Positions 24,001 through 27,000 of a stretch of 64,000 nt of DNA are shown here, one piece after another. The DNA is from Escherichia coli (GTDB taxonomy: Bacteria > Pseudomonadota > Gammaproteobacteria > Enterobacterales > Enterobacteriaceae): NCBI RefSeq assembly GCF_041886205.1, contig NZ_CP169029.1; one strand, 5' to 3'. A program made the position numbers. How positions within the stretch are numbered: position 1 is the stretch's first letter; the number at the start of each line of letters is the position of its first letter.

Positions 24001-27000
24001 TGCTGGAGGAGAACGTACACGATATTCTCTGCTCGGCGCTGGTGGATGACTGTATTGAGCGAGCAAAAAGTATCAAGCAAGGCGGCGCGAAATATGACTG
24101 GGTATCGGGCCTGCAGGTCGGTATTGCCAACCTCGGCAACAGCCTGGCGGCAGTGAAGAAACTGGTGTTTGAACAGGGCGCGATTGGTCAGCAACAGCTG
24201 GCTGCCGCACTGGCGGATGACTTCGACGGCCTGACGCACGAGCAGCTGCGTCAGCGGCTGATTAACGGTGCGCCGAAGTACGGCAACGACGATGATACTG
24301 TCGATACGCTGCTGGCTCGCGCTTATCAGACCTATATCGACGAACTGAAACAGTACCATAACCCGCGCTACGGTCGTGGTCCGGTTGGCGGCAACTATTA
24401 CGCGGGTACGTCGTCTATCTCCGCTAACGTACCGTTTGGCGCGCAAACTATGGCAACGCCAGACGGACGTAAAGCCCACACCCCGCTGGCAGAAGGCGCA
24501 AGCCCGGCCTCCGGTACTGACCATCTTGGCCCTACTGCGGTCATTGGCTCGGTGGGTAAACTGCCTACGGCAGCGATCCTCGGCGGCGTGTTGCTCAACC
24601 AGAAACTGAATCCGGCAACGCTGGAGAACGAATCTGACAAACAGAAACTGATGATCCTGCTCCGTACCTTCTTCGAGGTGCATAAAGGCTGGCATATTCA
24701 GTACAACATCGTTTCCCGCGAGACGCTGCTGGAGGCGAAAAAACATCCCGATCAGTATCGCGATCTGGTAGTGCGTGTCGCGGGCTATTCCGCCTTCTTC
24801 ACCGCGCTCTCTCCTGACGCACAGGACGATATCATCGCCCGTACTGAACATATGCTGTAACCCCCTCAGCCCGGTAACGGTTGTTGCCGGGCGAAAATAC
24901 TCATCCCATCGATATTATTTTAATCCGAAATAAATTTGTGCTCCGCGTCACATTGTCATTACACTGTGGCGGTTTGCATTCATTGTCAGGAGCACATCTA
25001 TGAGCGTAAAAGTTATCGTCACAGACATGGACGGTACTTTTCTTAGCGACGCCAAAACGTACAATCATGAGCGTTTTATGGCGCAGTATCAGGAACTTAA
25101 AAAGCGCGGTATTGAGTTCGTTGTCGCCAGCGGTAATCAGTATTACCAGCTTATTTCGTTCTTTCCTGAGCTAAAAGATGAGATCTCTTTTGTCGCGGAA
25201 AACGGCGCGCTGGTTTACGAACATGGCAAGCAACTGTTCCACGGCGAACTGACCCGACATGAATCGCGGATTGTTATTGGCGAGTTGCTAAAAGATAAGC
25301 AACTCAATTTTGTCGCCTGCGGTCTGCAAAGTGCATATGTCAGCGAAAATGCCCCCGAAGCATTCGTCGCACTGATGGCAAAACACTACCATCGCCTGAA
25401 ACCTGTAAAAGATTATCAGGAGATTGACGACGTACTGTTCAAGTTTTCGCTCAACCTGCCGGATGAACAAATCCCGTTAGTGATAGATAAACTGCACATA
25501 GCACTCGATGGCATTATGAAACCCGTCACCAGTGGTTTTGGCTTTATCGACCTGATTATTCCCGGACTACATAAAGCGAATGGTATTACGCGGTTACTGA
25601 AACGCTGGGATCTGTCACCGCAAAATGTGGTAGCGATTGGCGACAGCGGTAACGATGCGGAGATGCTCAAAATGGCGCGTTATTCTTTTGCTATGGGCAA
25701 TGCTGCGGAAAACATTAAACAAATCGCCCGTTACGCTACCGATGATAATAATCATGAAGGCGCGCTGAATGTGATTCAGGCGGTGCTGGATAATAAAGCG
25801 CCGTTTACTCTTTAATAATTGCCGATTCATTTTATTGAGAAAGTGCGCGTCGTCATGCCGGATGCGGCGTGACCGCCTTATCCAGCCTACAAAATCATGC
25901 AAATTCAACATATTGCGATACGCTGCCAGGTCTGATAAGCGTAGCGCATCAGGCAATTTTGCATTTGTCATCAGTCTCAGTAGCCCTGACATTATCAGGG
26001 CTACTGGTAATAACTTACTCGATCCCTTTACTACGCAGGTAATCTTCGTAATTACCGCTAAAGTCGATCACGCGTTCCGGGGTGATTTCCAGAATACGGG
26101 TCGCCAGGGAGCTTACAAACTCACGGTCGTGAGAAACAAAGATCAGCGTGCCCTGATACAGCTCCAGCGCCATGTTCAGCGACTCGATGGATTCCATATC
26201 CAGATGGTTGGTCGGTTCGTCCATGATCAGAATGTTTGGCTTCTGCATCATTAACTTACCAAAAAGCATCCGCCCTTTTTCCCCACCGGAAAGCACTTTA
26301 GCTGGCTTTTTGATGTCGTCCTGGCTGAACAGCAAACGACCGAGAATGCTGCGTACCGCCTGCTCGTCATCGCCTTCCTGCTTCCACTGACTCATCCATT
26401 CGAACACGGTCAGATCATTTTCGAACTCATATTCGTGGTCCTGAGCGTAGTAACCAATGCGCGCATTTTCAGACCATTTTACGGTGCCGCTCTCCGGTTG
26501 CAGATCGCCCACCAGCGTTTTCAGCAGCGTTGATTTACCGACGCCGTTGGTACCCAGTACCGCCAGTTTTTCACCCACTTCCAGCAGCAGGTTGAGATTT
26601 TTAAACAGTGGACCGTTATCAAACCCTTTGGTCAGACCTTCCACTTCCAGCGCGTTACGGAACAGTTTCTTATCCTGCTCGAAACGGATGAACGGGTTCT
26701 GACGGCTGGAGGCTTTCACCTCTTCCAGTTTGATTTTATCAATCTGGCGCGCGCGCGAAGTTGCCTGGCGAGATTTCGAGGCGTTGGCGCTAAAGCGGCT
26801 AACGAAAGATTGCAACTCAGCAATCTGCGCTTTCTTCTTGGCGTTATCGGCCAGCAGACGTTCACGCGCCTGGGTCGCCGCCGTCATGTACTCATCGTAG
26901 TTACCCGGATAAACGCGCAGCTCGCCGTAATCCAGATCCGCCATGTGGGTACAGACCATGTTAAGGAAGTGACGGTCGTGCGAGATGATGATCATGGTGC

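Follow-up and report, generated by a model that had tools for sequence, protein, structure and literature searches.

A ybiU-less ybiV-ybiT interval of Escherichia coli as the very probable junction of one old deletion in a recombination-bounded block

Two described systems of E. coli come closest to the locus analysed here. The first are the REP elements and their combination into BIMEs. The REP consensus used in this work, GCCKGATGCG…CTTATCMGGCCTAC, is an imperfect palindrome of about 35 nt. The tetranucleotide GTAG at the REP end is the RAYT recognition site. The second system is the presence or absence of accessory genes through homologous recombination of their core flanks in the mosaic E. 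coli core genome. The gene concerned, ybiU, is known from K-12: In MG1655 the order is ybiT (b0820), ybiU (b0821, 1266 bp, DUF1479) and ybiV (b0822). K-12 YbiU belongs to Pfam family PF07350 (Gig2-like/DUF1479; E = 2e-154), and its structure has been solved (PDB 2DBI, 2DBN, 2CSG).

In the 64-kb stretch of E. coli DNA that was analysed (the window), ybiV and ybiT are neighbours, and no trace of ybiU is left. The locus shares features with both systems. As in the REP/BIME elements of E. coli, two inverted units that match the consensus are separated by a linker of about 37 nt, lie in extragenic DNA between convergent genes and belong to an element with multiple copies in every E. coli genome. 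In contrast to these, the copy in the window is partly decayed, and the site of rearrangement lies elsewhere, since the same element is found downstream of ybiU in K-12. As in the mosaic core genome, sharp SNP steps border a block of approximately 3.3 kb with a gene-content difference inside. Unlike other such cases, the haplotype is unusually old, being common to E. albertii, and at least four structural states of the locus are present in E. coli.

Layout of the ybiV-ybiT locus

The ybiV gene (25000..25815, + strand) encodes an HAD-family sugar phosphatase of 271 aa (Pfam PF08282, HAD hydrolase), and ybiT (26015..27607, - strand) an ABC-F ATPase of 530 aa; both were taken from the ORF list and supported by Pfam. 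The 1.1 kb around ybiV and ybiT are 100% identical to E. coli PT62, where the RefSeq annotation names the same two genes. Their convergent stop codons are separated by 199 bp (25816-26014). With K-12 YbiU as query, tblastn (E <= 1e-3) found no match in the whole 64-kb window. An earlier note on this DNA had stated that ybiU is missing between ybiV and ybiT, that K-12 has a gene of about 1.27 kb at this place and that the remaining interval of 200 bp consists of two REP units and a hairpin. These observations stand, the gene order being that of MG1655 b0820-b0822 and the length a rounded 199 bp; both REPs and a hairpin with a 12-bp stem were found.

Read from ybiV to ybiT, the interval starts with a 41-nt spacer (25816..25856) that would hold the old deletion junction. 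It is followed by REP1, a Y-type REP unit GCCGGATGCGGCGTGACCGCCTTATCCAGCCTAC (25857..25890, + strand) homologous to the K-12 REP at L003 9349-9382, by a 37-nt linker (25891..25927) that aligns with the K-12 linker, and by REP2, an inverted and partly decayed Z-type unit (25928..25955, - strand) whose K-12 counterpart is located at L003 9420-9442. After 22 nt of unremarkable sequence comes the hairpin (25978..26006, - strand; arms 25978-25989 and 25995-26006), directly 3' of the ybiT stop codon, from which it is 8 nt away. Its arms comprise 12 nt each and are 100% complementary.

The pattern GATGCG-N(3-12)-CTTATCMRRYCT matches the 64 kb only at 25861-25888 (+) and 25928-25950 (-), with 0.00 matches expected from shuffles. 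REP1 (+) and REP2 (-) show the BIME organisation, being of different type, inverted and with the 37-nt linker between them. REP1 retains the GTAG end (CTAC at 25887-25890 is GTAG on the opposite strand) and has CCAG where CCGG is expected. At the end of REP2, CCAG (25926-25929) is found in place of the K-12 GTAG, and GGTC in place of GGCC. The linker contains ATTCAACATATTG, which by eye resembles the IHF consensus, with one mismatch. In the E. coli genomes, queries that include the interval match at several places each (median 7, maximum 19). An Rfam scan of the interval yielded only sub-threshold matches, the best being the REP-derived naRNA4 with 32 bits versus a gathering score of 59.5.

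Both strands of the interval fold far more stably than shuffled sequences, with z = -5.9 for the ybiT strand and z = -4.5 for the + strand. In the hairpin, 4 of the 12 pairs have undergone compensatory double changes between the haplotype classes without and with ybiU (stems CAGTAGCCCTGA and CCGTCACCCCGA, respectively), and 97.6% of the cells are paired. Neither strand carries a U-tract after the hairpin; therefore, it is not a canonical intrinsic terminator. Within the interval, no sigma-70-like or intrinsic-terminator-like site was found beyond chance. The hairpin probably serves the ybiT mRNA as a 3'-end or stability structure.

K-12 shares the REP pair, the linker and the position of the hairpin, all of them between its ybiU and ybiT genes. 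In a blastn comparison, homology between K-12 and the window extends to 25807 and resumes at 25836, so that 1,486 bp of K-12 face 28 bp here. Between the ybiV stop codon and the first REP there are 1,499 nt in K-12 but 41 nt in the window, which makes the net loss 1,458 bp. The 41-nt spacer stands for these approximately 1,499 nt of K-12, which comprise the terminator of ybiV, the promoter and coding sequence of ybiU and about 82 nt downstream of the latter. When the spacer was aligned locally with both spacers of three ybiU-containing alleles, the result was no better than with shuffles (p of 0.045 or higher). Since neither K-12 spacer resembles it significantly, a finer placement of the breakpoints is impossible. 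For the same reason, candidates for microhomology at the breakpoints that had been picked by eye ('CGATTC', 'CGTT(T)ACTC…ATTGC', 'TTAA') were dropped.

The end of ybiV differs as well. Its last 8 codons read …DNKAPFTL* in the window and …DNTSPFNS* in K-12, with 7 SNPs within the last 22 nt. It is unlikely that this tail arose by fusion to sequence downstream of ybiU: The protein still has 271 aa, Pro-Phe is in register, and the tail resembles that of Citrobacter amalonaticus (DNAPPFNV).

Ancestral arrangement and age of the ybiU-less haplotype

In all likelihood, the 199-bp interval goes back to a single old deletion, of which it is the junction, and the allele is carried in this strain by a recombination-bounded block. 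The comparative evidence comes from three samples. Outgroups were surveyed by one YbiV scan of species-representative genomes, which yielded 47 loci. The history within the genus is based on E. albertii, E. whittamii and three other Escherichia lineages, with E. fergusonii, E. marmotae and E. ruysiae outside the sample. Frequencies were counted in 5,426 complete E. coli genomes.

It could be assumed that the absence of ybiU is ancestral and that the gene was inserted between ybiV and ybiT in K-12-type lineages. The gene is missing from E. albertii, E. whittamii and E. coli B2, and two ybiU alleles with 76% nucleotide identity at the Escherichia site could suggest acquisitions. However, the sample contains more than 25 species, from at least 9 other enterobacterial genera, in which ybiU is adjacent to ybiV with the same spacing, in many cases with LacI, MFS and GH31 genes after it. 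In nearly all of the 14 sampled Citrobacter loci, ybiU is located about 150 nt downstream of ybiV; in C. gillenii the distance is about 2.2 kb. The same adjacency was found in Klebsiella, Raoultella, Enterobacter, Lelliottia, Trabulsiella, Pluralibacter, Huaxiibacter and Intestinirhabdus. Furthermore, K-12 and Citrobacter have diverged in ybiU to the same degree as in the genes on either side: Nucleotide identity is 80-86% for ybiU, 79-82% for ybiV and about 86% for ybiT, which is consistent with vertical descent of ybiU along with its neighbours. An insertion into an originally ybiU-less locus is, consequently, very improbable. A recent acquisition of K-12 ybiU from Citrobacter, which 96% protein identity to Citrobacter sp. 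MGH106 had brought up, was rejected because at the nucleotide level the gene is only as similar as its flanks.

In most of these outgroup genera, a gene of the LacI family is convergent on ybiU, and in Enterobacter and Raoultella the sizes of the subsequent ORFs match an MFS transporter and a GH31 hydrolase. E. coli SCU-172 has LacI, MFS and GH31 genes between ybiU and ybiT. From the outgroup neighbours and SCU-172 together, the ancestral order would be ybiV-ybiU-LacI-MFS-GH31-ybiT. Read from these sequence comparisons, the history of the locus is one of stepwise erosion, from ybiU-LacI-MFS-GH31 via ybiU alone (K-12, where the island is lost) to nothing (the window).

Among the 5,426 complete genomes, a contiguous ybiV-ybiT arrangement was found in 1,085 with a 1.1-kb query and in 1,052 with a 301-bp query, and ybiU-like DNA is wholly absent from 1,177. 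K-12-type ybiU (95% identity or more) is present in about 4,081 genomes, and 159 have only a divergent ybiU allele, with the best match in the 60-80% identity band. One example of the latter is 2020N21-246, where the allele is located at the same locus with 76-77% nucleotide identity. The LacI-MFS-GH31 island is present in 576-578 genomes. UTI89, S88, IHE3034, APEC O1, UM146, NU14, ATCC 11775 and ST131, which we take to belong to phylogroup B2, are among the genomes without ybiU.

The interval has a length of exactly 199 bp in the window, UTI89, 2013C-4282 and E. albertii, and these four alleles align without a gap at 88-92% identity. In E. albertii, the adjacent ends of ybiV and ybiT are 91% identical to the E. 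coli alleles, the level expected between the two species. As its flanks are no closer than that, E. albertii shares the arrangement by old descent rather than by recent transfer, and as the same gapless 199-bp interval is found there, one old deletion is sufficient. In the REP region, alleles with ybiU are only 77-85% identical to those without it. The ybiU-less class is linked to its own hairpin stem and its own ybiV tail: (D/E)NK(A/P)PF(T/N)L is common to the window, UTI89, ST131, 2013C-4282, E. albertii and E. whittamii, whereas alleles with ybiU end in DNxxPFN(S/C/N). On this evidence, the haplotype without ybiU goes back at least to the divergence of E. coli and E. albertii.

Several independent deletions at a hotspot could, in principle, have led to junctions that look the same. 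The gene was indeed lost or damaged elsewhere: Superficieibacter and UBA5654 lack it with other junctions and interval lengths, Escherichia sp. MOD1-EC7003 has a 5'-truncated ybiU, and in E. whittamii the ybiU site is occupied by a 1.08-kb AT-rich replacement. Nevertheless, independent events would hardly be expected to produce four sequenced ybiU-less alleles that are gapless over 199 bp and share linked substitutions in the ybiV tail and four compensated hairpin pairs, so that recurrent deletion appears to be a poor explanation compared to a single old one.

Recombination block and position of the REP pair

Over positions 1-36365, window and K-12 are collinear, with an overall identity of 98.6-98.9% and many 1-kb stretches that reach 99.5-100%. 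The haplotype block with the ybiU-less allele (23345..26681) interrupts this pattern. It comprises the 3' part of ybiW, a divergent ybiW-ybiV spacer, ybiV, the 199-bp interval and the 3' 670 nt of ybiT. Compared to K-12, only 3 SNPs are found in the 1.7 kb on its left (21656-23344) and 2 in the 2.3 kb on its right (26682-29000), and about 185 in the 3.3 kb between (23345-26681). The change in SNP density is abrupt at both borders, 23345 and 26681. According to sliding identity, the block is equidistant from K-12 and UTI89. Identity drops from a general level of 96-97% to about 85% in the ybiW-ybiV spacer and to 77-89% in the REP region.

Over the core of the block (23685-26814), only 0-2 SNPs distinguish the window, PT62 and CP52E. 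Right of 26815, where the window is the same as K-12, about 70 sites distinguish it from PT62 and CP52E. This means that the same block is found in differing flanking backgrounds. Since the core is identical in strains with different flanks, either the block was moved or its flanks were replaced by homologous recombination: We infer either that a K-12-like background received the block or that a resident block received K-12-like flanks. Because the allele sits in such a recombination-bounded block, ybiU was not deleted anew in this strain. The exact allele is present in about 11 of the 5,426 genomes, namely PT62, LP5-1, GF4-3, LHM10-1, VE-T9, XJ5.2, MB53, CP52E, 6EVA, ET201 and wlxctx60; outside these, no donor with 99% identity or above was found among them. 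A search for the donor in B2, 2013C-4282, E. albertii, E. whittamii and three other Escherichia lineages returned none closer than 92-97%. The nearest relative beyond the strains sharing the allele is 2013C-4282, which has the same ybiW-ybiV spacer allele but only 92-98% identity elsewhere; none of the species representatives comes closer.

The earlier note, right about the absence of ybiU, the K-12 order, the REPs and the hairpin, had interpreted the arrangement as a strain-specific indel with the REP cluster as breakpoint. Neither part of this interpretation could be upheld. The arrangement is carried by approximately 20% of the complete E. coli genomes and by E. albertii. The REPs are intact at the same position as in K-12, where matches to the REP pattern occur only at L003 9353-9442, between ybiU and ybiT, and no REP is present in the ybiV-ybiU spacer (17 kb of K-12 searched). 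The lost segment is, hence, not bordered by REPs at both ends, and the junction is located not inside a REP but in the 41 nt upstream of REP1, with both units complete in the window. As K-12 keeps both REPs beside ybiT and none on the ybiV side of ybiU, recombination between REPs cannot have made the junction. A recent strain-specific deletion by recombination or slippage between REP elements is, therefore, the least credible of the alternatives: Although the REP units begin 41 nt from the ybiV stop codon and DNA was lost twice beside the pair (the LacI-MFS-GH31 island, then ybiU), the identical 199-bp junction is found in more than 1,000 E. coli genomes and E. albertii, both REPs are present in the undeleted K-12 allele, and the surrounding 3.3 kb are 3-15% diverged from K-12, unlike a fresh deletion in a K-12-like genome. 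The adjacent REP pair may, nonetheless, have had some role in the original event.

Proposed history and consequences

A single old deletion would have removed the ybiV terminator, the ybiU promoter and coding sequence and the first few dozen bases downstream, a net 1,458 bp. Already present before this event, the two REPs and the hairpin near ybiT would not have been affected by it. The resulting haplotype now segregates in E. coli, in about 20% of the complete genomes and as a characteristic of B2. Three other states exist beside it in the species: the K-12-type ybiU, a ybiU allele that is deeply divergent, and the complete ancestral order with ybiU-LacI-MFS-GH31. Finally, homologous recombination across the conserved genes ybiW and ybiT would have placed or kept it in this strain.

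A more far-reaching proposal, which is speculative and on balance doubtful, regards the locus as a long-lived trans-species polymorphism. At least four states (full island, ybiU only, 24%-divergent ybiU, no ybiU) would have persisted since before the split of E. coli and E. albertii, with successive losses beside the same REP pair. Selection on the Gig2-like YbiU and the neighbouring sugar-utilisation genes could maintain them.

The strain presumably lacks the Gig2-like/DUF1479 protein YbiU altogether. The conserved position of the gene between a sugar phosphatase gene and the LacI-MFS-GH31 cluster suggests that YbiU has a role in the sugar pathway of this cluster and became redundant once the cluster was gone. 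In K-12, ybiV has its own hairpin-plus-T-run terminator, and the deletion would have cost the gene this element. The transcripts of ybiV and ybiT, which converge here, probably have their ends within or near the REP pair and the hairpin.

On the whole, the absence of ybiU is ordinary accessory-gene (pan-genome) variation, which is already contained in more than 1,000 annotated public genomes. It is mildly unusual only in the depth of the polymorphism, common to E. albertii, and in the number of structural states at one locus. The locus also illustrates clearly how a short homologous-recombination tract can carry a gene-content difference and how an ancestral sugar-utilisation cluster erodes step by step. 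With 1,177 of 5,426 complete genomes devoid of ybiU-like DNA, including the examined extraintestinal pathogenic B2 strains, ybiU is an accessory and not a core gene of E. coli, and the K-12 gene order is a poor default at the ybiV-ybiT locus. B2 strains and E. albertii are natural knock-outs for the study of YbiU.

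Alleles and hairpins around ybiV and ybiT

The spacer between ybiW and ybiV (window 24861-24999) was compared with its counterparts in K-12, UTI89, which also lacks ybiU, and 2013C-4282. It is a divergent allele that shares only about 85% identity with K-12 and UTI89 and is near-identical to that of 2013C-4282. The allele contains a 6-nt indel, and stem bases of the ybiW terminator hairpin are altered (GCCCGGTAACGGTTGTTGCCGGGC vs. GCCCGGCGGCGTCGTCGCCGGGC). On the other side of ybiV, a hairpin is located 3' of ybiT (window 25978-26006). Its structure is preserved between the ybiU-less and the ybiU-containing haplotype classes by four compensatory pair changes. 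A U-tract is absent at this hairpin on both strands.

A second SNP-dense patch was found at window 19766-21655, where identity to K-12 is 93-98%. It spans moeB and fsa as well as the beginning of ybiY. This suggests an additional recombination tract.

A putative island next to glnH

Compared with PT62, which carries the same ybiV-ybiT block, the window has 88 SNPs across 17-35 kb. Collinearity with both K-12 and PT62 ends at 36365, directly past glnH. In the remaining segment (window 36366-64000), the place of glnP is taken by genes for a tyrosine recombinase, a response regulator and a sensor kinase of the MASE1 type. This segment looks like an integrative island within the glnH-glnP spacer. 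This island was found at this site in no complete genome. The loss of collinearity and the 88 SNPs together show that the window does not derive from PT62 itself. In 63 further E. coli genomes, islands adjoining ulaE carry counterparts of the recombinase, regulator and kinase genes, with only ~88% identity.

The ybiU locus in other Escherichia

In E. whittamii, an AT-rich segment of 1.08 kb (7817-8888 of locus L039) stands between ybiV and ybiT where the REP pair would be. It comprises two small ORFs of 93 aa (8086-8367) and 99 aa (8437-8736), and the ybiV tail of this species belongs to the ybiU-less class. The ybiU gene of Escherichia sp. MOD1-EC7003 lacks its 5' part: The spacer joins straight to about codon 275, a frameshift follows further downstream, and a LacI gene is located after the truncated ybiU. 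This is a case of independent decay.

A second, divergent ybiU allele is present in E. coli 2020N21-246 (4965-6224 of locus L053) at the same locus as K-12 ybiU, with which it shares 76% nucleotide and 84% protein identity. In 158 more of the 5,426 complete E. coli genomes, the sole ybiU match is of this divergent kind, with its best place falling within 60-80% identity. The allele is 96% and 89% identical to ybiU of two Escherichia lineages (loci L007 and L006) and roughly equidistant from every other genus (72-78%).

In 576-578 E. coli genomes, genes for a LacI-family regulator, an MFS transporter and a GH31 glycoside hydrolase are located between ybiU and ybiT, as in SCU-172 (739-5814 of locus L005). 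This gene order is ancestral among enterobacteria rather than the product of island acquisition.
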